Positions 13,035 to 35,141 of a stretch of 64,000 nt of DNA are shown here, piece by piece. The notes under the pieces are model-generated. The model ran no database searches. It was not told where the DNA came from and saw only the letters and a list, made by a program, of their open reading frames with translations. Location of the stretch: positions 32,001 through 96,000 of the forward strand of contig JBBRLX010000012.1 of assembly GCA_038231135.1 (NCBI GenBank), read 5' to 3'. The DNA is from Candidatus Eiseniibacteriota bacterium (GTDB lineage: Bacteria > Eisenbacteria > RBG-16-71-46). Both the position numbers and the translations under genes were made by a program. Numbering within the stretch: the stretch's first letter is position 1; each line of letters opens with the position of its first letter.

Positions 13035-13844
13035 ATGCGTCAGACCCAGGGCTCGATGATCTGTCCGTCGTGCGGCAAGCTGATCGGCGTCTCCGAGCAG
13101 GAGTGCCCGTTCTGCGGCGCCAAGAATCCGAGCCTGTTCGGCTACGCCCCCGTAATCCAGCGATGGTTCGGGCGCCGGCTCGATCTCATCTCGCTGATCG
13201 TGACGACGTGCGTGGTGCTCTACATCGTGGCGCTCGCGCTCGAGCCCGACGCCATCCTGCATCCGCAGGGCGGATTCTTCGGACTGCTGGCGCCGGGATC
13301 GCGGGCGCTCTACCAGCTGGGCATGACGGGTGGCCTCGCGTGGACGCAGCACTGGTGGTGGACGCTGCTCACCGCAATCTATCTGCACGGCGGGCTGCTG
13401 CACATTTTCTTCAACATCATGTGGATCCGGAACCTCGGCCCGACCGTGGACGAGGCCTACGGACCCGCGCGGGCGTTCGTGATCTTCAGCATCGCGGGCG
13501 CCGTCGGATTCCTGGTGTCGAACCTCGCCGCCGGCACGCCAACGATCGGTGCGTCCGGCAGCATCTTCGGTCTGCTCGCGGCGCTGATCGTCTACAACCG
13601 GCGCACAGGCTCGCATGCCATGACCCAGCAGCTCTGGCAGTGGGCGATCATCATGTTCGTGATGGGCTTCGTGATGAGCGCCGTGAACAACTGGGCGCAC
13701 GCCGGCGGGTTCGCCGGCGGCTGGGTCACCGCCCAATTCATGCGACTCGGCCACGAGAAGCGCGAGAGCATGGGTGTGCAGTTGCTGGCGCTCGCCCTGA
13801 TCGCCCTGACGGCCGTGGGGTTCGTGTTGTCGTTCGTGCGGTGA
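13035..13844 (+). CDS. Rhomboid intramembrane serine protease with N-terminal zinc ribbon
   Basis: CPSC...CPFC; WWTLLTAIYLHGGLLHIFFN; catalytic GASG; NWAHAGGFAGG. Confidence 0.93.
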   Translation: MRQTQGSMICPSCGKLIGVSEQECPFCGAKNPSLFGYAPVIQRWFGRRLDLISLIVTTCVVLYIVALALEPDAILHPQGGFFGLLAPGSRALYQLGMTGGLAWTQHWWWTLLTAIYLHGGLLHIFFNIMWIRNLGPTVDEAYGPARAFVIFSIAGAVGFLVSNLAAGTPTIGASGSIFGLLAALIVYNRRTGSHAMTQQLWQWAIIMFVMGFVMSAVNNWAHAGGFAGGWVTAQFMRLGHEKRESMGVQLLALALIALTAVGFVLSFVR

Positions 13845-14113: not shown

Positions 14114-17050
14114 ATGTCGGAACCTTCCTACCTCGAACGCTTCTTCGTTCACTCACTTGACGAGTTCGTCGAACTCGCCCCCGAGGTCCGCGCCCAGAGC
14201 GTGCGGTCCGTGGTGCCCGACCTAAACTTCTTCCTCGACGAGGACCGGGCGCTCGGCGACCGCGACGCGCCGCCGCGGACGCGCACACTCGCGCGCTCGC
14301 TGTTCGAGGCGCTGGCGAAGGTCGCCACCCCCGACGGCGCCCGCACGCTGCGCGAGCGGGTGATCACCAACGCGCTGCTGCGCTCCGAGGCGGATCGCGA
14401 CCAGAACGTCTACCTGGGCCGGTTGTTCACTCGCTCGCTCACGCATGCGGTGCCCGACGTGATCCTCCAGCCTATGACGAGCGCCGAGACGGCGGCCGCA
14501 CTGCGCTGGGCGCGCGAGCACAAGGTGCCGGTGACGCTGCGCGGCGCCGCCACCACCGCCATGGGGGGCGCGGTGCCGAACGACGCCGGGCTGGTGCTCG
14601 ATCTGTCCCGGCTCGACTCGGTCGAGATCGACGCGGCCGCCGGCGTGTGCGTGCTCGGCGCGGGCGCGCGGCTGCGCACCGTGCACGCGGCGCTCGCGGC
14701 GCGTGGGCTGGCGTTACGCGCCTATCCCTCGAATCTCGGCGGCACGTTCGCCGGCTGGTTCGCCACCGGCGGCATCGGGCTCAACGCGGGGCTCGCGGGC
14801 CGGGCGCTCGACAACGTGCGCGCCGCCGACGTGCTGCTGCCGGGCGGGGACCACGTGCGGTTCCACGACGACGGCCGCATCGACGTTCCCGAGGGCAACA
14901 CGCGTGTCACGGTCACGGCCGAAGACGCGGCGCGCTGGTTCCACCGGCGCGGCAGCAAGCCGATGGCGCTCGCCGATCTCGCGGGCAGCGAGGGCGCGCT
15001 GGGCGCGATCCTCCACCTGACGGTCCGGATCGAGGCGCGGCCCGAGATCGCCCCGTTCCTGCTCGCGTTCGAGCGCGAGCAGGACGCCGTGGACGCCGCC
15101 GAATGGGTGGCGCGGCTCGAGTTGCCGGCCCGCCCGGCGAACGTGAAGTTCCTGTCGGGGACGCACGTCCATCATACGCTGCGGGTGTGGGACGACGAGG
15201 CGGCGCGGGTGTGGAAGCGGCATCCGGGCACCGGCTCGAACGATGCGGCGCTGCCGTGGACCCGCATCGTCGGGCCCGCCGAGATCGGCGCCGTGTGCAC
15301 GCCGATGACGGCGCATCCCGGCGCGTGCCTGTTCGTCGACTTCTTCGACCTGCGCGCGGCCCGGGAATTCGCGGCGCGCATCGCGGCATGTCCCGGCGCT
15401 CCGACGCTGCTCGAGGACAGCGTGCGGTTCGCGGCCGAGCGGTTCCGGCCGCAGCAGACCAAGCGCTTCGGTCCCGGCCTGCTGGCGGCGGAGATCTTCC
15501 TGCCGGCGCCCGAGGTGAAACGGTTCCTGCCGCGCGCGGCCGCGCTCGCGCGGCGCGCGGGATCGGCGCTCGATGCCGAGGTGTATTTCCTCGCCGACGG
15601 CTCGGCGCTGGTGATCGCGGGCTATCTCACCGATCACCGCAGCGGCGCGTTCGCGGTCGACCTGATGCTGGCGCCCGCGCTGCTCGACCTGGCGATGACC
15701 GACCACCAGGGCCGCCCGTACGTGCTCGGCCGCTGGCAGTCGGCGTGGTTCGAGAACAAGTTCGGACCCGCGGCCGCCGACCGGCTGCGCGGGTTCAAGC
15801 GGGCGCTCGACCCCGATGCGATCCTGAATCGCGGCGTGCTCCTCGAGCCGCGGCTCCACGGCGTGCTCGGCGCGATCGTGGCGGCGGCGTTCGCGCCCGG
15901 CGTCGGCATCGTGCGCCACGTGTTTCAGCTGCCGGCGCTGGCGTGGATGGCGCGCGGCGCCCGCAGCGTGCTGCGCGGCATGTCGGGGCCGGCGCATGGA
16001 CACGGCGAGCCGGCGGCGCCCGGCGCCCGGTTCCGCGTCGCCGCGCCGGAAGCCACGCGCAGTTCGAAGGCCCGGGCGGGCGAATCGCGTGCTGCCGCGG
16101 ACGAGACGCCGATCATGCTGGCGGTGCCGCCCTCGGCGGTTGCTGCGGGCGCGGGAACGGCGGGCGGCTCGAGCGGGCACGAGCCGCAGACGGCGTCCCA
16201 CGGCCACGGCGCCGACCGTGCCGCGGAGTTCGACCACCCGCCGGTACAACGCCCGGAGGATCGCGCGCTCCATTGTGTCAACTGCGGCGAGTGCAACAGC
16301 GTGTGCCCGGTGTTCCAGGACTCGAAAATCCGGCTGCCGCAGATGCTCACGCACCTCGGCGAATCGATGCGCGCGGGCGAGAAGTTGGGCGCCACGGGGG
16401 GCACGCTGCTCGACCTGTGCATGCGCTGCGGCAACTGCGAGCAGGTCTGCCAGGCCGGGATTCCGCACCTGCCGCTCTACGACGAGATGCAGCGGTCCGC
16501 CGATCGCGTCCATCCCCACGACGACGAGCGCCACACCGTGATCGTCGCCGCGGTCCGGTCCTCGCCGCACTACCTGCGCGAGTTCCTCGGCGTGCGCCCG
16601 GGCGGCTATCAGAAGCGCGCGCCGGTCGCGCTGCCGGGCCTGACGCGGTTCGTGGTGCTGCGATCCGAGAACGACGCAGGCCCGGCGGCCACGTGCATCC
16701 ATTGTGGCGCGTGCGTGCCGGTGTGCCCGACGCACGCCAACCGCGAGTTCCAGGGTGCGGACGCGCGGTGGATCACGACCGTGCAGAACCGCTGCATCGG
16801 CTGCGGCGCCTGCGTGGAAGTGTGCCCCAACAATCATCAGAATGGCGGCCAGACCCTGCGGGTGATGGAGGCGCCGACCCCCGACTGGTTCGCCGCGATC
16901 GCCGGGTTCCGTGGCGGGCGCGAGGGTGCGGGCGATATCCCCGGGTCCGGGTCGCCGCCGCGCGCCAGCGCTACATCGATGACACGAACGCCGGAAGCGG
17001 ATTCGCCGCTCCCGGTGGCAACGCAGGTTCACCGGGCTTCGCGCGGGTAA
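14114..17050 (+). CDS. FAD-binding (VAO/GlcD-type) oxidoreductase with four [4Fe-4S] motifs
   Basis: PDVILQP, VTLRGAATTAMGGAVP, LDLSRLD, YPSN..GTFAGWFATGGIG, GSEGALG, KRALDPDAILNRG; four CxxCxxCxxxC motifs (CVNCGECNSVCP, CMRCGNCEQVCQ, CIHCGACVPVCP, CIGCGACVEVCP). Confidence 0.88.
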   Translation: MSEPSYLERFFVHSLDEFVELAPEVRAQSVRSVVPDLNFFLDEDRALGDRDAPPRTRTLARSLFEALAKVATPDGARTLRERVITNALLRSEADRDQNVYLGRLFTRSLTHAVPDVILQPMTSAETAAALRWAREHKVPVTLRGAATTAMGGAVPNDAGLVLDLSRLDSVEIDAAAGVCVLGAGARLRTVHAALAARGLALRAYPSNLGGTFAGWFATGGIGLNAGLAGRALDNVRAADVLLPGGDHVRFHDDGRIDVPEGNTRVTVTAEDAARWFHRRGSKPMALADLAGSEGALGAILHLTVRIEARPEIAPFLLAFEREQDAVDAAEWVARLELPARPANVKFLSGTHVHHTLRVWDDEAARVWKRHPGTGSNDAALPWTRIVGPAEIGAVCTPMTAHPGACLFVDFFDLRAAREFAARIAACPGAPTLLEDSVRFAAERFRPQQTKRFGPGLLAAEIFLPAPEVKRFLPRAAALARRAGSALDAEVYFLADGSALVIAGYLTDHRSGAFAVDLMLAPALLDLAMTDHQGRPYVLGRWQSAWFENKFGPAAADRLRGFKRALDPDAILNRGVLLEPRLHGVLGAIVAAAFAPGVGIVRHVFQLPALAWMARGARSVLRGMSGPAHGHGEPAAPGARFRVAAPEATRSSKARAGESRAAADETPIMLAVPPSAVAAGAGTAGGSSGHEPQTASHGHGADRAAEFDHPPVQRPEDRALHCVNCGECNSVCPVFQDSKIRLPQMLTHLGESMRAGEKLGATGGTLLDLCMRCGNCEQVCQAGIPHLPLYDEMQRSADRVHPHDDERHTVIVAAVRSSPHYLREFLGVRPGGYQKRAPVALPGLTRFVVLRSENDAGPAATCIHCGACVPVCPTHANREFQGADARWITTVQNRCIGCGACVEVCPNNHQNGGQTLRVMEAPTPDWFAAIAGFRGGREGAGDIPGSGSPPRASATSMTRTPEADSPLPVATQVHRASRG

Positions 17051-17124: not shown

Positions 17125-19326
17125 ATGACTTCCACGTCGCATCGCATGCACCGCCTGTCCACGAACCAGCGCCAGCCGCGCGTGTTCGATCCGCCGCGCC
17201 AGCCAGATGGCCACCGTTCGCCCGTCAGCGCCTACTTCGGCCGCCACGTGCTGGACCTGATCAAGCTCAAGGAGCGGCTGCCGCGCGAGGTGTACCAGCA
17301 ACTGCTCACCACGCTGCGCAACGCCACGCCGCTCACCGCCGACGCCGCCGAGACGATCGCGTCGGTGGCGCGCGAATGGGCGACGTCGCACGGCGCCACC
17401 CATTTCACGCACTGGTTCCAGCCGATGACGGGGCTCACGGCCGAGAAGCACGACAGCTTCATCGACCTCAACGTCACGATGTCGGGAGAGTTCAAGGTGC
17501 TCGAGCGGTTCTCGGGCGCGCAGCTAACGCAGAGCGAGCCCGACGCCAGCTCGTTCCCGTCGGGCGGCATGCGTAGCACGTTCGAGGCGCGCGGCTACAC
17601 GGCGTGGGACCCCAGCTCGCCGATGTTCCTCGTCGAGAGCGTGAACGGGCGCACGCTGTGCGTGCCGTCGGTGTTCGTGAGCTATCACGGCGAGAGCCTC
17701 GATCACAAGACGCCGCTGCTGCGGGCGCTCGACGCGCTGAGCCGCACCGCGGTGCCGTTCCTCAAGCTGCTCGGCGACGTCGACGTGCGGTCCGTCAACG
17801 CGACGCTGGGCTGCGAGCAGGAGTATTTCCTGATCGACCGCGACCAGTACACCACGCGCCCGGACCTCGTGCTGTGCGACCGCACGCTGGTTGGCGCGGC
17901 GTCGGCGCGCGGCCAGCAGTTCGAGGACCATTACTTCGGGTCGATCCCGCCGCGCGTGCTCGCCTACATGGAGGAGCTGGAGTTCGAGCTGCACCGCCTC
18001 GGCATTCCGGTGAAGACGCGCCACAACGAGGTGGCGCCGATGCAGTTCGAGATGGCGCCGATCTTCGAGGACGCGAATCTAGCGAACGACCACAACGCGC
18101 TGTCGATGGACATCGCGCGCAAGGTCGCGCTGCGCCACGACTTCGTGTGCGTGTTCCACGAGAAGCCGTTCTGGGGCTTGAACGGCAGCGGCAAGCACTG
18201 CAACTGGAGCCTCGTGACCGATCGCGGCGAGAACCTGCTCGATCCGGGCCGGACGCCGCACCAGAACCTGAGGTTCCTGGCGTTCGTAGCGGTGTGCATC
18301 AAGGCCGTGCACGACCACGCGGACGCGATCCGGTTCTCGGTGTCGGGGCCGAACAACGACCTGCGGCTCGGCGCCAACGAGGCGCCGCCCGCGATCATGA
18401 GCGTGTTCGTCGGCGACCTGCTCACGAAGATCATCGAGCGCATCATGTCGGGCGCCGCGTCCGGCGACCCCGAGCACTTCGTAATGGAGGTTGGCGTGGC
18501 GCGGCTGCCGCAGCTCGCGCGCGACAACACCGACCGCAACCGCACCTCGCCGTTCGCGTTCACCGGCAACAAGTTCGAGTTCCGCGCCGTCGGCAGCAGT
18601 GCCAACTGCGCGGGCCCGATGACGATGCTGATCGCCGCGGTCGCGGACGCGATCGCCACCATGACGCCACGGCTCGAGTCCAAGATCAAGGCCGGCACCG
18701 CGCGCGACCAGGCCGTGCTCGACCTGCTGCGCGAGGTATTCAAGGAGACGTCGGCGGTGCGGTTCGAAGGCAATGGCTACAGCGCCGAATGGAAGGACGA
18801 GGCGGCCCGCCGCGGGCTGCCGAACCTGACCGACACGCCGGCGTCGATCGCAGCGCTGGCCGATGACCCCAAACGCACCGCATTCCTGCGCGAGCAGGCG
18901 ATCTTCACCGAGCGCGAGCTGGCGAGCCGGTTCAGCGTGGCGCTCGAGCGCTACATCAAGACGGTGATGCTCGAGGCGGAGACGCTGATCGAGATCCTCG
19001 GCACGTTCGTGATTCCATCGGCCGAGAAGCAGCTCGCGGTGTCGGCGAATGCGCTGCGGGACGCCCCAGGCGGCGTGACCGGGCTCGACAAGCGGCTGCG
19101 GGCGATCGCGCTCGCGCTCGCCGACGGCCTCGCGGGCGTCGATCGGCTGCAGGAGTTGATCGCGGGAGATGGCGGCCACGACGAGGCGGCATTCGCGCGC
19201 AAGCTGGCCTCCGAGGTGCGGCCGGCGATGGAGGCGGCGCGCGCGGCGTGCGACCGGCTCGAGCGGCTTGTCGATCACGACCTGTGGACGATGCCCAAGT
19301 ACCGGGAGATGCTGTTCGTCCGCTGA
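17125..19326 (+). CDS. glnA: Glutamine synthetase type III
   Basis: GATHFTHWFQPMTGLTAEKHDSF, EPDASSFPSGGMRSTFEARGYTAWD, GCEQEYFL, KTRHNEVAP, HEKPF.GLNGSGKHCNWS, RLGANEAPPAI, DRNRTSPFAFTGNKFEFRAVG; GGAG RBS; 733 aa. Confidence 0.96.
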   Translation: MTSTSHRMHRLSTNQRQPRVFDPPRQPDGHRSPVSAYFGRHVLDLIKLKERLPREVYQQLLTTLRNATPLTADAAETIASVAREWATSHGATHFTHWFQPMTGLTAEKHDSFIDLNVTMSGEFKVLERFSGAQLTQSEPDASSFPSGGMRSTFEARGYTAWDPSSPMFLVESVNGRTLCVPSVFVSYHGESLDHKTPLLRALDALSRTAVPFLKLLGDVDVRSVNATLGCEQEYFLIDRDQYTTRPDLVLCDRTLVGAASARGQQFEDHYFGSIPPRVLAYMEELEFELHRLGIPVKTRHNEVAPMQFEMAPIFEDANLANDHNALSMDIARKVALRHDFVCVFHEKPFWGLNGSGKHCNWSLVTDRGENLLDPGRTPHQNLRFLAFVAVCIKAVHDHADAIRFSVSGPNNDLRLGANEAPPAIMSVFVGDLLTKIIERIMSGAASGDPEHFVMEVGVARLPQLARDNTDRNRTSPFAFTGNKFEFRAVGSSANCAGPMTMLIAAVADAIATMTPRLESKIKAGTARDQAVLDLLREVFKETSAVRFEGNGYSAEWKDEAARRGLPNLTDTPASIAALADDPKRTAFLREQAIFTERELASRFSVALERYIKTVMLEAETLIEILGTFVIPSAEKQLAVSANALRDAPGGVTGLDKRLRAIALALADGLAGVDRLQELIAGDGGHDEAAFARKLASEVRPAMEAARAACDRLERLVDHDLWTMPKYREMLFVR

Positions 19327-19337
19327 CGAGGGCCGCG

Positions 19338-22300
19338 ATGACCACCGAATCGCATCACCCGCCGGACGGCCTGCTGTTGGCCTTTGACCGAACCCAGCGC
19401 GGAGCCGCGGAGCTCATGCCGCAGCTCGCGCTGTGGGAGGACCTGCTCGCGCTGGTGGTCGATCCCGACAGCCCGCGCGTGGCGGATCGCGCCCGCAAGC
19501 GGGAGTTGCTGTCGTTCCTGCTCGAGCGCGGCGGCATCGACGAGGCGGCGTTCTGGAACCTGGGACGCGGCCGCCGCGGCCGCATGTTCCTCGCGCGCTG
19601 GTCGCGGGTGTCGCGCGAGATCCCGCAACTCGAGCTGACGTCGTTCGATCTCGACAAGGTGCTGAAGGAACGGCACCGCCACGAGCCGCTCACGGTGGGA
19701 GCGGCGTGGCACCACGGCTTCTGGCGTTCGTATTTCTCGCACGCCGCGATCACGCATCCCGCGAACGACGGGCTGCGCGAGGAGTTCTCGACGGCGTGGG
19801 ACATCGGCCGCCGCCATCCGGCGGTGATGTTCCGCACCGGAGCGGGCATCGAATTCCAGCCGCTGCGCTCGATCCGGCTCGCGTTGCCGATGATCGTCGG
19901 GCCGTTCCGCCACACGGACGGCATCACGCTCGAGCGCGCCTGGCTCGAAGCCGTGGCGGGCCCGCAGCCGGCGGACGGGCCTTCGGGCGGGTCGCTGGTG
20001 GTCGTCGACGGCATGAGGTTCATGGAGAACGTTGCGGAACTGCTGCCGCACGCCCGGCATCTGGTCGTGCGCGTTCGCCACGCGCAGCTCGCGGCGATCG
20101 ATGCGGCGTGGCCGTCGTCGGCTGCGCTGCGCGACCTGCTGGCGGTGGCGCGCATGATCGAAGTGGTGTGGAGTCCGGGCATCGCCACCGATGTCGCCGC
20201 GCTGCGCGAACGCCATCCGGAGCTGCTGGTGTCCGTATTCATGAAGTACGAGGCGGGCGGGCGGATCGAGGCGGGCCAGGGAACGACGCAGGACTTCTGG
20301 CGCGCGCTCGAGGACACGGTGCGCCTCGAATCCGTGGCGATGATCCACTACCACGCGGGGCCCGAGAAGTCCTACCGGCTGACGCCTCGCATCGACGCGT
20401 ATCTCAAGGCGCGATTCCTGCGCGCGCGCGTGCAACTCGTGTCCGCGGGCGGTGACACCGACACGCAGGCGTCGGCGGCGACGGTGTACGAATCGGTGCT
20501 GCTGGGCGCCAACGGCGGCGCGATGACCGACGTGGCGGCGATCGCGCTCCTGCCGGGGCTGATCGAGGTGTATCACGGTGCCGATCCAGCGCCGGTGCTC
20601 GAGGAGCTGAAGTCGCTCCCGAAGCGGGAGCTGCGCGAGCTGGCGGCGAATTCGCTCGACTGCTGGCAGCACAGCATCCTCGATTTCCTGTCGTGCATGG
20701 GCATCGACGACATCCAGAAGACCTCGGGCAACACCATGGCGATCACCATGACCGAGGACTGGATCCGCGAGGTGGACGCGCTCGCCACGCCGGCGTTCGG
20801 CGCCGTCAATCGCGAGCTGAACGCCGCGCGCATCGCCGCCGAGCCGGTGCCGGCGGACGTGCGTGAGCGCTACCGCGTGTCGTCGCTGCTGACGGAGCGC
20901 GTGGCGGAGCTGCCGCTGGTGGCGGCGGCGAAGATCCTCGCCCACGACAACGCGAACTTCCATCTCGAGAACACCAACCGGAACCTGAGCGCCGACTTCC
21001 TCGAGGTGATTTACCGCATGGCGGCGGGCGAGCTGCCGACCGCGGACGAGTTCCTGATCGACAGCGACATGGGCGAGCTGTCGCTCGACTCGGTGGGCGT
21101 GCAAGTGTCGCGCGAGTCGATCGCCTGGTCGCTGGCCCGGCTGGCGCGCGATCCGGCGCTGCTGGACTACGTGTCGCTCGCGGTGCCGCGCGGCTTCATG
21201 CGGCCGGGCGCAGTGGCGGCAGGCGCCCGGGTCGAGATCCGCGCGGCGTCGGACGGCCCGGCGCTGGTGGCGTTCACCGCCGATGCCCGCGGCGGATTCG
21301 AGCACCCGCTCGCCGCCGGGCATCCGCTGGATGCCGCGCTCGCGGGCGATTCACCGCTGTGGCTGGTCGTGCGCGACGCCGCGGGCGCGGAGCGGCGCAC
21401 CGAGCTGCAGGCGCTGGCGCATGGCGGGCACGGCCTCGGCGTGGCGCGGGCCTCGCGCGACGGCGCGGTCACGCTGCGGCGTGATCCGCGCGGCGGCGTG
21501 GTGATCGCCGGATTCGGGTTCCGCGAGCCGATCTGGCACGGGCCCGTCGCCCACGCCAGCATCTCGCTGGGGGCCGCGTCGGAGGACTTCCTCACCGCGC
21601 GCATCGAGGGCAACGCCGGGCTGGCGATGACGTCGTCCGGCGAAGGCGGCCCGATCCGCTTCGCCGGCGGCGAGATGGCGTGGGAGAGCATGCAGGCCGC
21701 GAGCGGGCACTTTGGCATCCACGCCGCCGACCTCCGGCGCGTGCGCGACGTCGAGATCAAGATCAACCAGGGCGCCAAGCCCGGCAAGGGCGGCCGGCTG
21801 TCGGGCGCCAAGGTCACGTCGACCGTGAGCCGGGCGCGCAACATCCCGATCGGCACCGACGCGCTGTCGCCCGATCCCAAGCACGACATCTATTCGATCG
21901 AGGACATGCCGGCCGAGGTGTGGCTGTGGCTGCTGTACCACAACCATTGCGGCATCAAGATCACCGGCTCCAACTACACGCGGTTCGTGGCCGCGGGCAT
22001 GTGGTCGAACTTCGTCGTCGACTATCTGCTCGTCGACGCCGGCCTCGGCGGCTCGGGCAACTACCACGCCGACAGCTCGCACGTCGGCTGGCCCGACATC
22101 TTCCGCACGATCCTGCACACCCACCACGCGCTGGTGTCCGAAAAGGTCGACCTCGACCGCTCGGGCCGGCTCCAGTCGCTGCGCGACTCGAACGGCGCGC
22201 CGTTCGGCGCCACGGGCGGCACGCGGCTGCTGGCGTCGGGCGGCCTGCGCGGCGAACTCGACATGATCAAGGTGCTGATCGCCGGCGCCGACGCGCTCGT

Positions 22301-25300
22301 CGAGGCCAGCATCGGCAAGGCGGTGGCGTTCGGCTGCAACCAGTGCGGTAACTGCCATCTCGACTGCCCGCGGGGCGGCATCACCACCAAGCCCGAGCTG
22401 ACGGTGCAGAACGACCGCGTGCTGATGCGCCAGCGGTTCCGCAACTGGACCGTGCTCAATATGGTGAAGCTGGCGGTGCTGATCGACGCGATGAACCGCG
22501 AGAGCGGCGCGCTCGACGAGGCCGGCCAGGTGGCGGTGGCGTCCATGCTGCTGAGCGACATCCGCCAGCTCCGCGGCCGCACGGATCTGCTCGCGATGCC
22601 GGTGCGCCCGCGCCCGGCGGACGGCTCGGTGCACGGGACTGTCGCCACGCCGTCCGCGATGACCGCGCGCGCCGCCGATGCCTCGGGGGCGCCCGCGATC
22701 GTCACGAGCGGGGCGGGCGCGGGGACCCGGCTCGAGCCCGAACGCGATTCGTGCCGCGTCGGCTCGCTCGCGGTGTCGGAGCCGGTCACGGTGCACGCGA
22801 TCTGGGAGTCGGCGCGGCTGTCGTACAACGGCGGCAACAATCGCGGCGGCGGCATCGATTTCGCCGGGTTCGCGCCGGCCGCGGTGCGCGAGAAGACCTG
22901 CGTGATCGTGAACACGATCGGCCCCGACCGCGCCGACACGATGCGCGAGATGCTGGATCACTTCGCCGGCTGCCGGTTCTTCGACGCCGCGGGCGCGAAG
23001 CTGACGCTCGACCAGGTGCGGTCGCGGCTGCCGGAGTTCCGCGTGCCGGTGCGCGGGCAGTGCGCGGCCGAGGACGGCTGGCGGCTCGCCGACCTGCGCG
23101 AGAATCCCGGCGACTTCACCGTGCTGTTCGTGGACCTGCGCGATGACGTGCTCGACCGCTACGGCCGCATGCTGCTCGCGAGCGAGCACTGGCTGCAGCG
23201 CCTCACGAAGTACGGCGAATTCGCCGCCGAGCCGGCGCCCGATCAGCTCGAGGACTTCACCGCCGACGTGCGCGAGGAGTACTTCACGGCGCTCGCCCAT
23301 CTGCTGGATTCCCGCTACTACCGCACGCACGCGCCCGCCGGCAGCACGCCGCCCGCCGGCAAGTACGCGGCGAAGCGCCGCGGCTTCGTGGTGTCGATGG
23401 GCGAGGACCTGGGCGCGATCAAGATCTCGGGCTGGACGCACACGATCCCCGAGTACTTCGACTTCGACCGGTTCTGGGCGGGTTACCCCGGCGCCGCGCC
23501 GGACGGCGTGGACATGCGCATCAAGGGCCGTCCGCTAAGGACCACCGCGCTGCACGCCCACGTGTGGGGCATGCACCATCGCTACCCCACGAACTCGCCG
23601 GCGATCGATGCCGAGGGCCGCGGCAACCCGGCGGGCGCGCATCCATTCAAGGCGTACAACGTGCTGCTGATGCACAACGGCGAGCAGGTGGCGGTGGATT
23701 CGACCGCGCCGTTCCTGATGGAGTACGGCTACGTGCACGCCGATCCGACGATGGGCCCGGGCCACGCCGACTATCACGGCGACTCGGTGTACGAACGCAA
23801 GGCGCTGACCGACACCGAATACGCGGCGTATCTCGTCGACTTCACGCGCCGCGTGCTGGGACTGACCACCGAGGAGGCGAGCCAGATCATCTCGCCGATC
23901 ACGGGCTTCGATCTCGCGAACATGGATCCGGTACGCCGTACCAAATTCGAGCTGCTGATGCGCAACTACGTGCAGCTCACGCCGACCGGTCCCTACAAGT
24001 TCACGATCGTGGAATCGCGCCGGCATCACGCGCCGTCCGCGAATGGCGGCGCCCGCTCGGCGCGGGTGGTGGGATTCCGCGAGAACATGGACATCAAGTT
24101 CCTGCGCCCGCACGAGATCGTGGTCAGCACCGACACCGGCAAGGGCGGCGTGCACGTGGTGGCGAACGGCAGCGAGGCCAAGATCGCCGACAGCATGCTG
24201 CGGGCGCTGCACGTGCAGGGCGTGCTGCCGGACGCCGCGCACGACCTGCGCTTCAACATGCGCCCCGGCGGCACGCCGGAGCGGCGCGACTACGGCGGCG
24301 TGTTCGAGGCGTTCACCGTTCCCGGCAGCGGCCGGCTCGACCTGAGCAACCGGTTCGGCGAGCCCGTCGAGGTGGCGCGGCGCGGCGCCAAGGTCGATTT
24401 CGCGGTGCCGCTCGACCAGGCGGTGGCGCGCGCGAACGGGCCGTGGAAGCAGCAGATCGACGCGCGCCTGCGGCAGCTCGCCGCGGCCGTCGACCCGCTC
24501 GCGGACGCGGCCGGCCGCCGACGGCGGTTCGGGCCCGACGACGACCTGCCGGCGCCGGCGTCGGAGTTGCTCGAGAGCCTGCTCGATCACACGCGCTCGG
24601 TGACGTTCGAGGACTATCGTTGTTTGGTGGAGCACGCGCTGCCCGAATGGGCGCGCGGCGGCGCGACGCCCGAGCCGGTGAAGGACGTGCGCACCGCCGT
24701 GGCGCTGCGCATCCTCACCGAGCTGCGCAAGCGCGTGAGCCTCGGCGACCTCGGCGGGAAGTCGCTGTCGAGCATGGAATATCTCACCGACGGCGGTCGC
24801 TCCGCCGACGGCAGCCCGGAGGGCGGCGTGTACCGGCTGCTCGATCGCGTCACGCCGCTGCACGCGGCGCTCGCGCCGCCGGCGCCGTCCGGACGCTGGG
24901 GCCGGCTCACGCTCGGCACCCGCGACGACCTGCTGCCGCCCACCGATCCCGAACGCGACGTGCTGGTGATCGACTTCCGCGGCTTCGAGAGCGAATCGTT
25001 CCGCATGGACTCGGCGTCGCGCACCGTGAGCGAGGCCGTGCGCATGGGCTGGCGGCAGTTCGTGGGCTACGACTTCATCGGCGGGCCGCGCTACATCGGC
25101 ACCAATCTACCGGCCGCGGACGGGCTTGCGGCGGTGGGCGTGACGCTCGAGCTCTACGGCCGCGAGTTCGGCGACTTCATTGGCGCGCTGCTCGAGGGCG
25201 CGCGCGTGTTCGTGTACGGCCAGGGCGAGAGCCACGTCGGCATGAAGGCCGATTCGGGCTACCTGTTCGTGCTGCAGGACATGCTCAACACCGGCATGTA

Positions 25301-25886
25301 CGCGGCGCACGGGGGCACGGTGAACGTGTGGGATTCGGGCTCGCGGTTCGCGGTCGCCGGTCAGAACAAGGTGCTGCTCGCCGACGGCAAGACCCCCGCG
25401 CCGGGTTTCAAGTCGATCCATTTCGGATCGCCCAACGAATACGCGTTCGAGTACCTGATGTCGGGCGGCGATAACTCGTTCCACGTCGTGATGGGACTCC
25501 AGAAGCCCGACGCGCGCGGCAACCTGTCGCTCAAGCCGCGGCCGTATTCCGGAAAGTTCTTCATGTCGGGCGCCGCGGCCGGCCGCGTGTTCGTATTCGA
25601 CCCGCTCGTGAAGCTCGATCCTGCGCAGTACACGGGCAACGTGCTGTCGGCGGTCACGCCCGAGGAGTGGGCCCGGGAGATCGGCCCGTTCATTGCGGAC
25701 GAGGCGGGGCGGCGCGGGCTGCCGATCCGCATCGAGGGGGACGCGATCCGCATCCGGCTCGACGGCGAGTGGCAGCGCTGGCACCGGGACGAGGCGTTCG
25801 CGAAGCTGATCCCGGTCAGGATCGCGAAGGCCGCGCAGCAGCAGGGCATCGCCCCGCCGGCGCTGACCCAGATCGTCGGGGAATAG
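19338..25886 (+). CDS. Domain-permuted glutamate synthase large-subunit-like protein (FMN-like, FMN/FeS, Ntn amidotransferase, GXGXG)
   Basis: SSGEGG, QAASGHFG, EIKINQGAKPGKGGRLSGAKV, SPDPKHDIYSIED and CNQCGNCHLDCPRGGITT (FMN domain) come before ERDSC, HHRYPTNS, AHPF, HNGE and TDTE (class II GATase). A C-terminal GXGXG beta-helix follows (GPRYIG, GDFIGALLEG, YAAHGG, YAFEYLMSGG). 2182 aa. Confidence 0.88.
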   Translation: MTTESHHPPDGLLLAFDRTQRGAAELMPQLALWEDLLALVVDPDSPRVADRARKRELLSFLLERGGIDEAAFWNLGRGRRGRMFLARWSRVSREIPQLELTSFDLDKVLKERHRHEPLTVGAAWHHGFWRSYFSHAAITHPANDGLREEFSTAWDIGRRHPAVMFRTGAGIEFQPLRSIRLALPMIVGPFRHTDGITLERAWLEAVAGPQPADGPSGGSLVVVDGMRFMENVAELLPHARHLVVRVRHAQLAAIDAAWPSSAALRDLLAVARMIEVVWSPGIATDVAALRERHPELLVSVFMKYEAGGRIEAGQGTTQDFWRALEDTVRLESVAMIHYHAGPEKSYRLTPRIDAYLKARFLRARVQLVSAGGDTDTQASAATVYESVLLGANGGAMTDVAAIALLPGLIEVYHGADPAPVLEELKSLPKRELRELAANSLDCWQHSILDFLSCMGIDDIQKTSGNTMAITMTEDWIREVDALATPAFGAVNRELNAARIAAEPVPADVRERYRVSSLLTERVAELPLVAAAKILAHDNANFHLENTNRNLSADFLEVIYRMAAGELPTADEFLIDSDMGELSLDSVGVQVSRESIAWSLARLARDPALLDYVSLAVPRGFMRPGAVAAGARVEIRAASDGPALVAFTADARGGFEHPLAAGHPLDAALAGDSPLWLVVRDAAGAERRTELQALAHGGHGLGVARASRDGAVTLRRDPRGGVVIAGFGFREPIWHGPVAHASISLGAASEDFLTARIEGNAGLAMTSSGEGGPIRFAGGEMAWESMQAASGHFGIHAADLRRVRDVEIKINQGAKPGKGGRLSGAKVTSTVSRARNIPIGTDALSPDPKHDIYSIEDMPAEVWLWLLYHNHCGIKITGSNYTRFVAAGMWSNFVVDYLLVDAGLGGSGNYHADSSHVGWPDIFRTILHTHHALVSEKVDLDRSGRLQSLRDSNGAPFGATGGTRLLASGGLRGELDMIKVLIAGADALVEASIGKAVAFGCNQCGNCHLDCPRGGITTKPELTVQNDRVLMRQRFRNWTVLNMVKLAVLIDAMNRESGALDEAGQVAVASMLLSDIRQLRGRTDLLAMPVRPRPADGSVHGTVATPSAMTARAADASGAPAIVTSGAGAGTRLEPERDSCRVGSLAVSEPVTVHAIWESARLSYNGGNNRGGGIDFAGFAPAAVREKTCVIVNTIGPDRADTMREMLDHFAGCRFFDAAGAKLTLDQVRSRLPEFRVPVRGQCAAEDGWRLADLRENPGDFTVLFVDLRDDVLDRYGRMLLASEHWLQRLTKYGEFAAEPAPDQLEDFTADVREEYFTALAHLLDSRYYRTHAPAGSTPPAGKYAAKRRGFVVSMGEDLGAIKISGWTHTIPEYFDFDRFWAGYPGAAPDGVDMRIKGRPLRTTALHAHVWGMHHRYPTNSPAIDAEGRGNPAGAHPFKAYNVLLMHNGEQVAVDSTAPFLMEYGYVHADPTMGPGHADYHGDSVYERKALTDTEYAAYLVDFTRRVLGLTTEEASQIISPITGFDLANMDPVRRTKFELLMRNYVQLTPTGPYKFTIVESRRHHAPSANGGARSARVVGFRENMDIKFLRPHEIVVSTDTGKGGVHVVANGSEAKIADSMLRALHVQGVLPDAAHDLRFNMRPGGTPERRDYGGVFEAFTVPGSGRLDLSNRFGEPVEVARRGAKVDFAVPLDQAVARANGPWKQQIDARLRQLAAAVDPLADAAGRRRRFGPDDDLPAPASELLESLLDHTRSVTFEDYRCLVEHALPEWARGGATPEPVKDVRTAVALRILTELRKRVSLGDLGGKSLSSMEYLTDGGRSADGSPEGGVYRLLDRVTPLHAALAPPAPSGRWGRLTLGTRDDLLPPTDPERDVLVIDFRGFESESFRMDSASRTVSEAVRMGWRQFVGYDFIGGPRYIGTNLPAADGLAAVGVTLELYGREFGDFIGALLEGARVFVYGQGESHVGMKADSGYLFVLQDMLNTGMYAAHGGTVNVWDSGSRFAVAGQNKVLLADGKTPAPGFKSIHFGSPNEYAFEYLMSGGDNSFHVVMGLQKPDARGNLSLKPRPYSGKFFMSGAAAGRVFVFDPLVKLDPAQYTGNVLSAVTPEEWAREIGPFIADEAGRRGLPIRIEGDAIRIRLDGEWQRWHRDEAFAKLIPVRIAKAAQQQGIAPPALTQIVGE

Positions 25887-25964
25887 ACCCGGCTCGATTT
25901 CGTGGCCGGTCTTGGCTAGGTTCTCCGGGTTGCCCGCCTGCGCGGGCGGCACCGGAGGCCGACG

Positions 25965-26468
25965 ATGACCGAGATTCCCGCGGACGATCCCACCACCCGG
26001 CTGTTCCTGCGTCACGCGCTCGCGACGCTCGCCTACCGCGCCGGGAAGACCGTGCGCGGGACGCCGGCGGAGTTCGGCGCGTATCGCGCGACGCCGGACG
26101 CGCCGTCGTGCGTCGAGATCCTGGCGCACATGGGCGACCTCATGGAGTGGGTGCTGCGGATGGTGCAGGGCGAGCCGCGCTGGACCACGGCGACGCCGCT
26201 CGCGTGGTCCGGCGAGATCGCGCGGTTCTTCGCCGCGCTCGGCGCGCTGGACGCGCAGCTCGCGTCGAACGCGCCGATCCGGTTCGAGCCGGCGCGGCTG
26301 TTCCAGGGCGGCATCGCGGACGCATTCACCCACACCGGGCAGCTCGCGATGCTGCGCCGCATGTCGGGGCACAAGATGCCGGGCGAGAACTACGCGCGGG
26401 CCGACATCGTGGCCGGGCGCGTAGGGCTCGACCAGATACCGCCCGAGCCGAAGTACGAGTTCGATTGA
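25965..26468 (+). CDS. DinB-like protein
   Basis: LRHALATLAYR, EILAHMGDL, ADAFTHTGQLAMLRR; GGAGG RBS. Confidence 0.7.
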   Translation: MTEIPADDPTTRLFLRHALATLAYRAGKTVRGTPAEFGAYRATPDAPSCVEILAHMGDLMEWVLRMVQGEPRWTTATPLAWSGEIARFFAALGALDAQLASNAPIRFEPARLFQGGIADAFTHTGQLAMLRRMSGHKMPGENYARADIVAGRVGLDQIPPEPKYEFD

Positions 26469-26496
26469 GCCCGCCGAGCCGGGAACTGGAGCACTG

Positions 26497-27219
26497 ATGA
26501 GTGCCGGAGATATGCAGGACCGGGTCCAGGCGCTGGACGTGCGCTTCGCCGTGCCCGCTGCGGGCGACGTGTCGGGCCTGTGGCTGCGGCCGACCACGGC
26601 GCACGCGGCATTCGTGTTCGCCCATGGCGCGGGCGCCGGCATGCGGCACGAATTCATGGAGGACCTGTCGCAGCGGCTGGCATTGCGCGGGGTCGCGACG
26701 TTGCGCTACGCGTTTCCCTACAGCGATCGCGGCAGCCGGCGCATCGATCCGCAGCCGGTGCTGCTCGCGACCGTGCGGGCCGCCGTAGCCCGGGCCCGCG
26801 AGCTGGCGGGAGGTCTGCCGCTGGTGGCGGGCGGCAAGTCGATGGGAGGGCGCATGACGACGCTCGCGGCTTCGGCGGCGCCGCTCGACGGCGTGCGAGG
26901 CATCGTGCTCACGGGGTTTCCGCTGCACGCGGCCGGCGCGCCGCCCAATGTGACGCGCGCCCAGCACCTCACGACGGTCGGCGTGCCGATGCTGTTCCTC
27001 CAGGGCACCCGCGATTCGCTCGCCGATCTCGAGCTGATGCGCGGGGTGTGCGACGGCCTCGGCGCACGCGCCACGCTGCACGTGGTGGACGGTGCCGACC
27101 ATGGCTTCCACGTGCTCAAGCGCTCGGGACGCGACGACGACGCGGTGCTCGACGAGCTGGCCGATACGATCGACCACTGGGTGCGCGTACTGGCGCCCGT
27201 CGCCGGGGAGGCACCGTGA
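26497..27219 (+). CDS. Alpha/beta hydrolase (KANL3/Tex30-like)
   Basis: AHGAGAGM, nucleophile GGKSMGGR, GFPLH, FLQGTRD, GADHGF. Confidence 0.88.
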   Translation: MSAGDMQDRVQALDVRFAVPAAGDVSGLWLRPTTAHAAFVFAHGAGAGMRHEFMEDLSQRLALRGVATLRYAFPYSDRGSRRIDPQPVLLATVRAAVARARELAGGLPLVAGGKSMGGRMTTLAASAAPLDGVRGIVLTGFPLHAAGAPPNVTRAQHLTTVGVPMLFLQGTRDSLADLELMRGVCDGLGARATLHVVDGADHGFHVLKRSGRDDDAVLDELADTIDHWVRVLAPVAGEAP

Positions 27220-27914
27220 TCTTTCGCGTCGGCACCAGCGGGTTCTCCTATCCCGAGTGGAAGGGCAGCTTCTATCCCGAGAAGATCAAGGCCGCCGACA
27301 TGCTGGCGTTCTACGCGCAGCGGTTCGACACCGTCGAGATCAACGCGTCGTTCTACCGCATGCCGACCGTCGCGACCGTTGAGGCATGGGCGTCGCAGGT
27401 GCCGCCGGAGTTCCGGTTCGTGATGAAGGCGTCGCGGCGCATCACCCACGACCGACGGTTGAACGAAGTCTCGGACACACTGACGTTCTTCCTCAACGTC
27501 GCGCTGGCGCTCGGCGAGCGGCGCGGGCCGCTGCTGTTCCAGCTCCCGCCCAACTTCAAGCAGGACCTGCCGCGGCTCGAGGCGTTCCTCGCGCTGCTGC
27601 CCGCTACCGTGCAGGCCGCGATGGAGTTCCGCCACGCGTCGTGGTTCGAGGACCCGGTGTTCGACGCGCTGCGCGCCCGCGGCGTGGCCCTGTGCATCGC
27701 CGACACCGAGGATGGCGTCGACGCGCCGTTCGTGGCCACGGCGCCCTGGGGGTATCTGCGGCTGCGCGACGTCGATTATTCGGACGAGCAACTCGCGGCG
27801 TTCATCGAACGCGCGCGGTCGCAGAACTGGTCGGAGGCGTTCGTGTTCTTCAAGCACGAGGATGCGGGCCGTGGGCCGCAGTTCGCGGAGCGGTTTGTGA
27901 AGCTGGCGGGGTAG
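27216..27914 (+). CDS. DUF72 (YecE-like) protein
   Basis: GTGA overlap; GTSGFSYPEWKGSFYP, TVEINASFYRMP, LFQLPPNF, EFRHASW, FFKHED. Confidence 0.9.
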   Translation: MIFRVGTSGFSYPEWKGSFYPEKIKAADMLAFYAQRFDTVEINASFYRMPTVATVEAWASQVPPEFRFVMKASRRITHDRRLNEVSDTLTFFLNVALALGERRGPLLFQLPPNFKQDLPRLEAFLALLPATVQAAMEFRHASWFEDPVFDALRARGVALCIADTEDGVDAPFVATAPWGYLRLRDVDYSDEQLAAFIERARSQNWSEAFVFFKHEDAGRGPQFAERFVKLAG

Positions 27915-32351: not shown

Positions 32352-35141
32352 CTACTCCGCTGCCCGCGCCGCCAACCGCTTGAGCGCCTCGTCCATCCGG
32401 ATCCCCTCGCCGAGGACGGCGGTCAGGGGATCGTCCATTCCGGCGAAGCGCTCGAGCACGGTGCGGATATTGAATCGCGCGGGCACGAGCCCCGGTGCGA
32501 CCTCGTCCCACAGCAGCGGGCACGACACGGTCGCCCCGGGCAGCGCGCGCACGCAGAACGGCGACACGATCGACTGGCCGTGGCCGTTCTGGCCGAAGTC
32601 GACGTACACCTTGCCGCCGCGGCCCTGGATGTGGCGCACGATGGTCGAGATCTTCGGCAGCCGCTGCACCACCAGTGTGGCGATCAGCTTCGCGAACGCG
32701 CGTGAGTGCTCGTAGGAGTACCTGGCGCCGAGCGGGATCAGGATGTGCAGGCCGCTCGCGCCCGATGTCTTCGGATGCCCCGGGATCTCGAGTTCGTCGA
32801 GGATGCCCTTGAGCGTGCGTGCCACCTCGATCACGTCCGCGAACGGCGCGCCCTTGGGGTCGAGATCCAGGATCGACCAGTCGGGCCGATCGATCGCGCC
32901 GAGCCGCGAACTCCACATGTGAATCGGGATCGTGCCCAGGTTCGCGAGATAGCGCAGCGTGTCGGTGTCGTTCACGATGAAGAACCGGTTCGAGACGCTG
33001 CCGTCGCTCGATGGCACCATCTCGGTATGCACCCAGTCGGGCGTGAACACCGGCGCGTCCTTCTGGTAGAACGACTTCCCGGTGATGCCGTCGGGATAGC
33101 GCGTGAGGAACACCGGCCGGTCGCGCAGGTAGGTGAGGATGCGCGGCGCGATCGCCTCGTAGTAGCCGATCAGGTCGGACTTGGTATAGCCGTCGGCGGG
33201 CCAGAAGACCTTCTTCGGATTCGTGATCGGGACCCGCTCGGTGTGCGCCGGGCGCTCGCGGACCTTCGGCGCGGGAACCGCGGTATCAGCGTCGCCATCG
33301 TATGTGGCGTCCGTGGATCCGGCGCCGGACGTGGGGTCCGCGACCGCCGCGTCCTCGCGCACCACGTCCTCGGGCTTGCGATCGTCGCGCAGCCCCATGA
33401 ACGTCGGATGCCGCAGCCCGCCCTCGTGAGTCCACTCCGTATAGCGCACCTCGCACACCAGCCGCGGCTCGACCCAGTGATGTCCTTTGCCCTTGGGCGA
33501 GCGCCTCGCGAACGGCGATGCGTCGCGCGCCAGCGGCTCGAGCCGCTGCCAGAGCGCCTCGATGCCGCGCGCGTCGAAACCGGTGCCGACGGCGGTGACA
33601 TACACGAGCTGGCGGACGGGCGCGGTTTCATACACACCCACGTGCAGCGCGCCGAACCGGCCGCGCGAACCCTGCGGGTCGGTCCAGCCGCCGATCACGA
33701 ATTCCTGGCGGCGCTGGCACTTGAGCTTGATCCAGTCGCGGGACCGCGCGCTCACGTACGGGCTCGCCGCCCGCTTCGCGACGATGCCCTCGAGCCGCAT
33801 GGCGTCCGCCGCCGCGAAGAACTTGAGACCGTGCTTCGCGACGTGATCGCCATAGCGCACCGTGCCCAGCGTCGGCAGGATCGCGCGCAGGCAGTCCTTG
33901 CGATCCGTCAGCGCCAGCCGGCGCAGGTCGTGCCCGAACAGCGACACGCAGTCGAAGAACATCGCCACCACCGGCGACGCGGCGCGCGCGCGCGCGATGT
34001 CGTGCTGATTCACAAGGTGCATGCGGTGCTGCAGCTGCTGGAAGCTGGGCTGGCCGGTCGCGTCGGGCGCCACGATCTCGCCGTCGAGCACGAACGCGTC
34101 GTACGGCAGGCCCTTCAGCGCCTCGACGACCTCCGGGTAGCGGCCCGTCACGTCGGTGCCGCTGCGCGCGAACAGCGTCACACGGGCCCCGGCGCGTTCG
34201 GCGATCACGCGCACGCCGTCGTACTTGATCTCGAAGATCCAGCCGTCGCGGTCGAACGGTTCCGTTTCGAGCGTGGCCAGCATTGGCGACAGCTTCTTCA
34301 CGTCGATCGCCGCCACCGGCGCGCCGAGCGCCTCGACCCGTGTACGGACCTTCGCCACGTGGCCGGGCAGATCCGCCATCTCCTCCACGGTGACCCCGGT
34401 CACCACCGATTGCGGATAGCGGTCGACCAGCTCCACGTCCGACGCGCCCGCGCCGGCCTTCTTGAGCAACAGCCACTCCTTGTCCTTATTGCCCATGCGG
34501 ACGAGCGTCCAGCGGCCGCGCAGCTTGGTGCCGAACAGCTCCAGCTCGAGCTTGCCGCGTTGATATTGTTCGAGCAGTGGCTCGGGTTTGAACGACCGGT
34601 ACCAGCCGCGATCCCAGATGATCACGCTGCCCGCTCCGTAATTGCCGGCGGGGATCGTGCCTTCGAAGCTGCCGTATTCCAGTGGATGGTCCTCGACGTG
34701 CACCGCGAGGCGTTTCTCCTCGACATGGGTCGACGGCCCCTTCGGCACCGCCCAGCTCTTGAGCGTGCCATCGAGCTCGAGCCGCAGGTCGTAGTGGAGG
34801 TGCGTGGCGGCGTGCTTGTGGACGAGGAACGTCAGCCGTCCGGCGTGGCGCTGGCCGGGAGCGGCGGCGGATTCGCCGCCGAACGGCTCGGGAGTGCTGC
34901 CGGGATCGCGCTTGAGCCGGTACGCTTCGAGGTTGGAAGTCACTGTGGAATCGTCAACTGATTCCACTGGCGGTTTGGCCCGTTTCGCCGGCGCGCGCTT
35001 GCCGGCCGCCGGAACACGATCCGGCACCGGTCCTGCCCCCGGCCGGGCTTTGGGTTCGGTGTCCGCCTTCGGTTTGCGTGCGCCCATGGTGCTCCCTGAC
35101 AACGGGGTGACGGCCCCGGCCCGCAACACGTTTCGCGCCAT
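32352..35141 (-). CDS. ligD: DNA ligase D (phosphoesterase, ATP-dependent ligase and polymerase domains)
   Basis: TPEP, HAATHLHYDLRLE, KSWAVPKGPS, EDHPLEY; EIKYDG, LDGEIV, EGIVAK, WIKLK; RYPDGI, DLDP, KTSGASGLH. Start may be ATG 35087. Confidence 0.97.
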   Translation of the reverse strand: MARNVLRAGAVTPLSGSTMGARKPKADTEPKARPGAGPVPDRVPAAGKRAPAKRAKPPVESVDDSTVTSNLEAYRLKRDPGSTPEPFGGESAAAPGQRHAGRLTFLVHKHAATHLHYDLRLELDGTLKSWAVPKGPSTHVEEKRLAVHVEDHPLEYGSFEGTIPAGNYGAGSVIIWDRGWYRSFKPEPLLEQYQRGKLELELFGTKLRGRWTLVRMGNKDKEWLLLKKAGAGASDVELVDRYPQSVVTGVTVEEMADLPGHVAKVRTRVEALGAPVAAIDVKKLSPMLATLETEPFDRDGWIFEIKYDGVRVIAERAGARVTLFARSGTDVTGRYPEVVEALKGLPYDAFVLDGEIVAPDATGQPSFQQLQHRMHLVNQHDIARARAASPVVAMFFDCVSLFGHDLRRLALTDRKDCLRAILPTLGTVRYGDHVAKHGLKFFAAADAMRLEGIVAKRAASPYVSARSRDWIKLKCQRRQEFVIGGWTDPQGSRGRFGALHVGVYETAPVRQLVYVTAVGTGFDARGIEALWQRLEPLARDASPFARRSPKGKGHHWVEPRLVCEVRYTEWTHEGGLRHPTFMGLRDDRKPEDVVREDAAVADPTSGAGSTDATYDGDADTAVPAPKVRERPAHTERVPITNPKKVFWPADGYTKSDLIGYYEAIAPRILTYLRDRPVFLTRYPDGITGKSFYQKDAPVFTPDWVHTEMVPSSDGSVSNRFFIVNDTDTLRYLANLGTIPIHMWSSRLGAIDRPDWSILDLDPKGAPFADVIEVARTLKGILDELEIPGHPKTSGASGLHILIPLGARYSYEHSRAFAKLIATLVVQRLPKISTIVRHIQGRGGKVYVDFGQNGHGQSIVSPFCVRALPGATVSCPLLWDEVAPGLVPARFNIRTVLERFAGMDDPLTAVLGEGIRMDEALKRLAARAAE

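Follow-up and report, generated by a model that had tools for sequence, protein, structure and literature searches.

Class II (N-terminal nucleophile, Ntn) glutamine amidotransferases are thought to need their catalytic cysteine (Cys1) at or near the start of the chain. In the glutamate synthase GltB the canonical order is a glutamine amidotransferase domain (GATase, residues 1-422), a central domain, the flavin mononucleotide (FMN) domain and a beta-helix, and the central domain is a truncated barrel lining the ammonia tunnel (available portion of PMC8097209). As to other arrangements, the accessible parts of PMC5775586 and PMC8097209 mention only archaeal single-domain open reading frames (ORFs) and a eukaryotic alpha-beta fusion. 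The window analysed here, 64,000 nucleotides of a contig from a Candidatus Eiseniibacteriota bacterium (JBBRLX010000012.1), encodes a glutamate-synthase-like protein of 2,182 residues (P0001) in which the equivalent of Cys1 lies mid-chain, behind the FMN domain. This fused protein is a real and undescribed glutamate synthase variant that stands outside canonical GltB. The literature searched, which left most subscription journals outside, describes neither such a fusion nor a glutamate synthase with an internal Cys1, and no enzyme of this kind working in reverse.

Gene integrity and domain organisation

The fused gene (nt 19,338–25,886, + strand) is a single ORF from ATG to stop, and a Shine-Dalgarno-like site precedes the ATG. 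A family search with residues 1000-2182 as query returned 141 proteins, the best 120 of which were listed and are 57-76% identical; among those with a named source, Candidatus Eisenbacteria is the commonest taxon label. Single chains of more than 2,000 residues make up 109 of these 120. The region nt 18,565–26,500 is spanned by one contig in each of two runs with zero differences, although the runs are possibly the source of the window and thus not independent of it. Given full-length homologues and difference-free contigs in both runs, an assembly join or a frameshift was rejected as the origin of the ORF, and the separate ORFs that an earlier note on this DNA had allowed for did not appear.

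From the amino terminus, the protein consists of a degenerate barrel, the FMN barrel, a linker, the motif ERDS/C1139, a class II amidotransferase domain and a GXGXG domain. The degenerate barrel (residues 136-466, nt 19,743–20,735, +) matches the profile of the first subunit of the split operon described below (hhalign 98.6%, E 1e-15) and is a homologue of that subunit minus its ferredoxin; the barrel of the subunit is itself a degenerate copy of the FMN barrel. The central domain of GltB (PF04898) has no Pfam match in the fused protein, where this FMN-like barrel is found instead, and the barrel is a probable stand-in for it that, by analogy, may line an ammonia tunnel. The earlier note had placed the FMN domain in the N-terminal half, which in fact holds two barrels, this one and that of the FMN domain. 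Between the two barrels lies an insert (residues about 520-735, nt 20,900–21,540) with no Pfam match.

The FMN/synthase barrel (Pfam Glu_synthase, residues 735-1039, E 2e-43; nt 21,540–22,454, +) carries the motifs SISLGA, GEGG, QAASG, KINQGAKPGKGG and SGGLRG, and the FMN and 2-oxoglutarate site motifs of canonical GltB are present. Most FMN-site motifs are kept in 102-109 of the 109 full-length members, SISLGA in fewer (90/109). The PDB matches of the fused protein are glutamate synthases and are located at this barrel (E 2e-19). An iron-sulfur motif, CxxCxxCxxxC (residues 1000-1010, nt 22,335–22,367, +), is found in all 109 full-length members and has four cysteines versus three in the [3Fe-4S] motif of canonical GltB; in the alignment to 1ea0 three of them align and the fourth is extra. 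The fused protein lacks the ferredoxin that the split FMN subunit carries.

The amidotransferase domain (residues 1139 to about 1690, nt 22,752–24,407, +) and the GXGXG beta-helix (about residues 1870-2100, nt 24,945–25,637, +) were assigned through relatives of the protein, which establish both domains. The Pfam scan suggested in the earlier note placed Glu_synthase upstream of the internal Cys but recognised no GATase family in the fused protein alone and scored GXGXG below the cut-off (E 0.039); the amidotransferase searched as a single sequence against Pfam and PDB gave no matches. The C-terminal half (1135-2167), however, aligns end to end with the 878-residue stand-alone protein P0205, Cys on Cys (E 1e-41, 24%), and an archaeal-type GltB1 can be aligned with the whole amidotransferase domain (hhalign E 8e-44). 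A profile of 29 amidotransferase domains matches the amidotransferases of GFAT, GlmS, PurF and GltB (E 3e-7 to 9e-4); 23 of the 29 match GATase_6, and the window's own domain does not. Language-model features, taken as a lead only, score the domain 0.92 to GATase clusters. For the beta-helix, the family profile matches residues 1209-1361 of 1ea0 (E 3e-6) and FwdC. The fused protein reaches 80 bits against NCBIfam gltB (NF008730), the cut-off of which is 1047. A search of this genome gave no further GltB-type gene.

The processing site

The internal Cys is encoded by TGC at nt 22,752–22,754, in the sequence ERDS-C-RVG, as the earlier note had read it (residue 1139 of 2182). The predicted processing site, ERDS/C (nt 22,740–22,754, +), is strongly conserved: Cys is invariant in the 120 listed homologues. 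Ahead of it come Glu or Asp, then His (112), Arg (7) or Leu (1), then Asp in all 120, then Ser (119) or Ala (1), and RV follows. By chance, a protein of the same composition would contain 0.0025 matches to [ED][HKR]D[SA]C. ERDS/C aligns with EEGG/C of the split forms, and the Cys with Cys1 of these and of GltB1; by alignment, Cys1139 is the equivalent of the Ntn Cys1, as had been proposed. An Ala/Gly/Pro-rich linker (about residues 1085-1134, nt 22,590–22,739, +) stands directly before the motif; it is not conserved in the homologues, and its length is 20-66 residues (median 25 in the 118 of 120 measured). Both flanks of the Ser/Cys bond are conserved while the linker ahead of them varies freely, so that ERDS/C resembles a processing site, and since the catalytic Cys sits mid-chain the protein likely needs cutting in two. 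Taking all the explanations considered below together, cleavage before Cys1139 is predicted with considerable confidence; the computed fragments are 122.7 and 114.4 kDa.

Two-chain Ntn hydrolases such as penicillin acylase and gamma-glutamyl transpeptidase are well known, and two-chain processing is textbook for Ntn families other than class II. We know of no such case in a class II amidotransferase, and the literature searched gave none. From what is usual in the enzyme class, the cleavage would probably be self-catalysed. PurF-type propeptides are removed autocatalytically, and Arabidopsis GPRAT2 produced in E. coli began at Cys87, 86 residues having been removed (both from the accessible part of PMC7056826). 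The PurF of this genome carries a WREE/CG leader, and the GltB sequences of 6s6s and 1ea0 are offset by 36 residues.

The glutamine site

All the glutamine-site motifs reported earlier are present downstream of the Cys: HHRYPT from residue 1413, AHPF at 1434-1437, HNGE from 1446 and TDTE from 1491. HHRYPT, HNGEQ and TDTE are kept in all 109 full-length members. HHRYPT, HNGE and TDTE align with GFAT, GlmS and PurF, and we take them to correspond to Arg73/Thr76, the Asn-Gly oxyanion hole and Asp, respectively (GlmS/PurF numbering). The class II hallmarks Gly2 and the Arg26 equivalent are absent. In their place are Arg1140 (position 2) and Gly1165, in all 120 listed homologues; in a set covering four groups of related enzymes, Arg2/Gly26 was found in 23/23 sequences of the window's family and Gly2/Arg26 in 45/45 from the other three, where the Arg lies in NRG. 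The earlier note had considered that the Gly-to-Arg change could mean an inactive glutaminase. This is unlikely, because the Arg26 equivalent is lost together with Gly2, and the glutamine site retains all its other motifs; we read the swap as a compensated, active site. Cys-Arg amino termini occur in the active gamma-glutamyl hydrolases EgtC and Dug3, although the searches made for such a terminus gave no example.

Split operons and other fused groups

A search of 50%-cluster representatives (110 matches) reached stand-alone proteins of about 880 residues and two giant ones. A genome scan with P0205 gave 582 confirmed stretches, from which 80 loci were kept. In 56 of these, a degenerate barrel gene, an FMN gene and an amidotransferase-GXGXG gene follow each other in that order; of the remainder, 10 show partial order, 12 begin at a contig end and 2 deviate. 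This three-gene operon occurs in Desulfobacterota, Dehalococcoidia, Planctomycetota and others, and no biochemical study of it was found in the literature searched. The stand-alone amidotransferases carry a leader before GG/CG[VI] in 74 of the 80 loci, with the Cys at a median position of 39, close to the 36-residue offset between the two GltB sequences, and in two loci (L036, L096) the first two genes are fused. No split member of the window's own family with its own leader was recognised among the 120 shorter matches listed.

Because its domain order equals the gene order of this widespread operon, the fused gene is best read as an operon-order fusion of the split three-gene enzyme. Circular permutation of gltB, the origin implied when the earlier note called the enzyme permuted, was rejected: central-like/FMN/GATase/GXGXG is no rotation of GATase/central/FMN/GXGXG. 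The ferredoxin with which the first split subunit starts is found at the end of the FAD-linked protein encoded upstream (see below), and this suggests an earlier four-part fusion that was later cut again at a new place.

A second search (25 matches) revealed two more fused groups and P0244, a fragment without the Cys start. One group has 18 proteins, KSB1-labelled where named, with the motif [DG]A/CGVV (three are exactly ERDA/CG); the other has 6 proteins with [ND]/CGVA and a three-Cys cluster motif as in canonical GltB. In both, the internal Cys stands behind a linker of 46-85 residues and the FAD protein is also fused in, giving chains of up to 3,345 residues that comprise an FAD oxidase, ferredoxins, both barrels, the amidotransferase and GXGXG (P0196, P0198, P0228-P0243 and P0245-P0250). 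The Cys lies about 1,660-2,030 residues inside the full-length giants among them. When 68 amidotransferase-GXGXG sequences were placed in a tree, a fully supported branch set apart each of the three fused groups and likewise the split group; the tree is unrooted and its stems are long.

Two further observations concern the split operons. At L071:1-10884 the three-gene operon is directly followed by a classical GltB1/GltB2/GltB3 set in the same genome. Many split operons without an FAD gene have a MetF-like (PF02219), MetV-like (PF12225) or MvhD-like (PF02662) gene just upstream (for example, L079:859-1770, L110:6052-6957, L048:6076-6762, L052:6307-6777 and L088:1882-2388), possibly an interchangeable electron-input module.

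Gene neighbourhood and glutamine synthetase

The fused gene is preceded by a rhomboid gene (nt 13,017–13,844, +), a gene for a flavin adenine dinucleotide (FAD)-linked oxidase-fold protein (nt 14,114–17,050, +; the ORF opens at 14,090 and the start was placed from homologues) and a type III glutamine synthetase (GSIII; nt 17,125–19,326, +), the sole glutamine synthetase (GS) found in this genome, which ends 11 bases before it. The FAD gene is upstream in 13 of 15 family loci (in the other two the contig ends first) and in 4/4 retrieved later. Its product has the FAD-binding PCMH fold (best matches 7qh2, 9qgz and 8jdb, E 1e-37 to 5e-32) and four CxxCxxC motifs, and is nearest to LctD and glycolate oxidase; in the alignment to 7qh2 the metal ligands of HAGDGNLH and GEHG are replaced. 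No GltD was seen among the scanned neighbours, a genome-wide GltD search not having been made, and the upstream FAD/Fe-S protein is the probable electron partner. The rhomboid protease, with an N-terminal zinc ribbon, is an upstream neighbour kept with or without the enzyme genes and is used here to anchor the synteny of the locus, with no claim that it belongs to the enzyme; no reason was found to link it to the cleavage. A promoter and terminator scan was uninformative (0 promoters; 2 terminators versus 4.7 expected).

The distribution of GS was surveyed by PF00120 in 172 genomes of the phylum that are at least 80% complete. Among 26 carriers of the fused family, 19 gave no GS match; the corresponding numbers are 4 of 137 for non-carriers and 3 of 9 for carriers of split or distant forms. 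Six of these misses, three of them among the 19 carriers, were deduced from tallies. A search with a GSIII query found no GS in 14/14 GS-less carriers (13 fused, 1 split), and a PF03951 search none in 5/5. The PF00120 match in G033 (4e-37) is not a GSIII, and that genome was counted as GS-positive. Where carriers have GS, a GSIII lies inside the operon in five genomes and elsewhere in two. In a sample of 41 genomes, non-carriers had no PF01645 match better than 4e-10. This near-exclusion of GS, like the FAD/Fe-S partner gene, goes beyond the earlier note.

The locus behind the rhomboid gene occurs in three states: with both GSIII and the fused gene, with GSIII only (6 of 10 same-family non-carrier loci retrieved), and with the FAD and fused genes only (7 loci). 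The FAD and fused genes are direct neighbours in 12 loci, which means that GSIII is truly absent from these and not just unassembled. Five GS-less carriers that were checked all keep PurF, GatB and GDH-type genes; one has GlnRS, and AsnA, an alternative amide source, is in only two. Outside the phylum, 46 of 48 split-form carriers have GS. In an RpoB tree of 40 genomes both traits change six times, with only one independent pair on well-supported branches; G126 was labelled a non-carrier in this tree though it carries a split form. In that genome, of the same family and without the fused gene, a split-type FAD/barrel/amidotransferase cluster lies divergently beside GSIII (L122, G126:C112). A GSIII tree does not resolve whether the in-operon copies are ancestral. 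The assemblies have gaps: 25 of 71 gave no rpoB match, and neither did the 93% complete assembly G000.

Downstream of the fused gene (nt 25,965–27,914) are a DinB-like gene, an alpha/beta-hydrolase gene and a third that presumably encodes a DUF72 protein; of these, the hydrolase gene and the third recur downstream in G001 and G013. Further along, a 929-residue ORF (nt 32,352–35,141, −) is presumably DNA ligase D, with phosphoesterase, ligase and polymerase parts.

Proposed function and alternative explanations

On balance we favour a fused protein that probably cleaves itself between Ser1138 and Cys1139; the two resulting chains are predicted to remain associated and to act as a glutamate synthase. 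The folded amidotransferase would release Cys1 by an N-to-S acyl shift, in the way that short propeptides of this class are removed, and the variable linker would provide slack. The freed Cys1139 would hydrolyse glutamine, and a tunnel with walls formed by the FMN and degenerate barrels would carry the ammonia to 2-oxoglutarate at the FMN. Electrons would enter via the four-Cys cluster from the upstream FAD/Fe-S protein, which would replace GltD, and in this genome the in-operon GSIII and the fused enzyme would form a GS-glutamate synthase (GS-GOGAT) cycle. Several findings sit badly with this proposal. A glutamine-consuming enzyme should depend on GS, yet GS was not found in most carriers, and the locus itself has none wherever the FAD gene directly adjoins the fused gene. 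Unlike LctD, the FAD partner has no His/His/Glu-His metal ligands, so the electron donor stays a candidate. The amidotransferase branch of the window's family is very long (2.46 changes per site) and all members have Gly for the Arg26 equivalent, so cleavage or substrate may differ in this family. As to origin, a fused ancestor that later underwent fission fits the unrooted four-group tree as well as one to three fusions do.

The absence of detectable GS from most carriers hints that the enzyme might make glutamine instead of consuming it. With the same architecture and cleavage, it would run mainly backwards: glutamate would be oxidised at the FMN and ammonia passed to the Cys1 site, so that 2 Glu yield Gln, 2-oxoglutarate and 2 electrons, the latter leaving through the FAD/Fe-S partner to a higher-potential acceptor, and glutamine would be formed free of ATP and could replace GS. 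We regard this as the main rival to the forward glutamate synthase, which is the best reading and has somewhat better than even chances, but as rather unlikely; the full claim, that a self-cleaving, two-chain reverse glutamate synthase with redox-driven glutamine synthesis has replaced GS in many family members, is slightly more doubtful still. The contrast between carriers and non-carriers, the three states of the locus, which form a pattern of functional redundancy, and the PurF, GatB and GDH-type genes kept by GS-less carriers agree with it. With the glutamate/glutamine couple at about −0.075 V standard and −0.18 V in vivo for typical pools, a quinone-level acceptor would suffice. On the other hand, we know of no amidotransferase running in the reverse direction, GS is retained by split relatives whose FAD partner is of the same kind, and 7 of the 26 carriers have GS too. 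The single well-supported pair in the RpoB tree and the gaps in the assemblies also count against reversal, import of glutamine by peptide feeders could explain the loss of GS, and the chain of four-Cys clusters would suggest low potentials. A different escape from GS dependence would be a cleaved, active enzyme whose amide donor is not glutamine, its Cys-Arg terminus hydrolysing another gamma-glutamyl amide (or asparagine) and the amine passing to 2-oxoglutarate. N-methylglutamate synthase is proposed to work likewise, with MgsABC built from GltB1/GltB3/GltB2-type subunits (accessible part of PMC6237917), and the Arg2/Gly26 swap is restricted to the window's family, whose amidotransferase is the most divergent. 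We consider this improbable: GS, where present, is the type III enzyme inside the operon in five genomes, the locus showed no methylamine or peptide genes, and the idea leaves unexplained why non-carriers nearly always keep GS.

The two explanations that dispense with cutting the long chain fare worse. In one, which takes up the ammonia-using alternative of the earlier note, no cleavage occurs, the amidotransferase serves only as an inactive scaffold and free ammonia is the substrate of the FMN barrel. Both substitutions at positions 2 and 26 depart from the norm, Pfam fails to recognise the domain, and carriers without GS would have no self-made glutamine; even so, the idea is very unlikely in view of the invariance of Cys1, Asp at P2, Ser/Ala at P1, HHRYPT, HNGE and TDTE across proteins 57-76% identical, the internal Cys kept by two other fused groups, and the GDH-type genes in this genome as in all five GS-less carriers checked. 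In the other, an internal start codon in the linker would yield a separate amidotransferase-GXGXG chain with a short leader. A Met does stand three residues past RGRTDL in 111 of 118 homologues, 20-60 residues ahead of the Cys, resembling the split leaders. The linker ATGs nevertheless lack a Shine-Dalgarno signal (mean −1.5 kcal/mol over 16 of them; the other internal ATGs, 702 in number, have −2.4, and four clear gene starts range from −5.6 to −9.5), the Met codon is replaced by CTG in 3 of 19 loci, and 15 of 18 linkers in the second fused group have no Met, which makes this the least credible of the explanations.

The three fused groups hold Cys1 from 950 to about 2,000 residues inside the chain, which predicts internal maturation with the enzyme's other half as the 'propeptide', and they offer a clean test case for GltB-type processing. 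The window's family also indicates that glutamate synthase modules can assemble in a second order, with an electron partner other than GltD. If the exclusion of GS is causal, it points to a hitherto unknown route to glutamine.

Comparison with known systems

With GltB (A. brasilense 1ea0/2vdc/6s6s; Synechocystis Fd-GltS 1llw) the fused protein shares the FMN barrel motifs, the class II amidotransferase, the GXGXG helix, a second truncated barrel and a Cys1 behind an extension ending in E-x-D-[SA], which is cleaved in GltB and predicted to be cleaved here. It differs in its order (barrel, FMN, GATase, GXGXG), in the piece ahead of Cys1, which has 1,138 residues and includes a catalytic domain, in the fourth cluster Cys and Arg2/Gly26, and in an FAD-oxidase-fold partner where GltB uses GltD or ferredoxin. 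Also close are the split GltB1/GltB2/GltB3 systems of archaea and anaerobic bacteria, which have the same modules in the same order, a GltB1-type amidotransferase and, in 6 of 81 loci, an FAD-oxidase gene upstream. These are separate genes, in contrast to the single chain here; the ferredoxin of their first subunit is here on the FAD protein, that of the FMN subunit is gone, and GS, nearly always present with them, is mostly missing with the fused form. The propeptide-bearing PurF enzymes (B. subtilis, Arabidopsis GPRAT2) are activated by cleavage before the nucleophile, as is predicted here, as far as the accessible part of PMC7056826 describes them, but their leaders are short and discarded. 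MgsABC resembles the system in having split GltB1/3/2 modules beside a GS-family ligase (accessible part of PMC6237917), and differs in its three small subunits, its GmaS-type ligase and the lack of a degenerate barrel or FAD partner. The FAD partner, finally, has the FAD-binding PCMH fold in common with LctD, GlcD and D-2-hydroxyacid dehydrogenases, but its metal ligands are replaced and four CxxCxxC motifs are appended.

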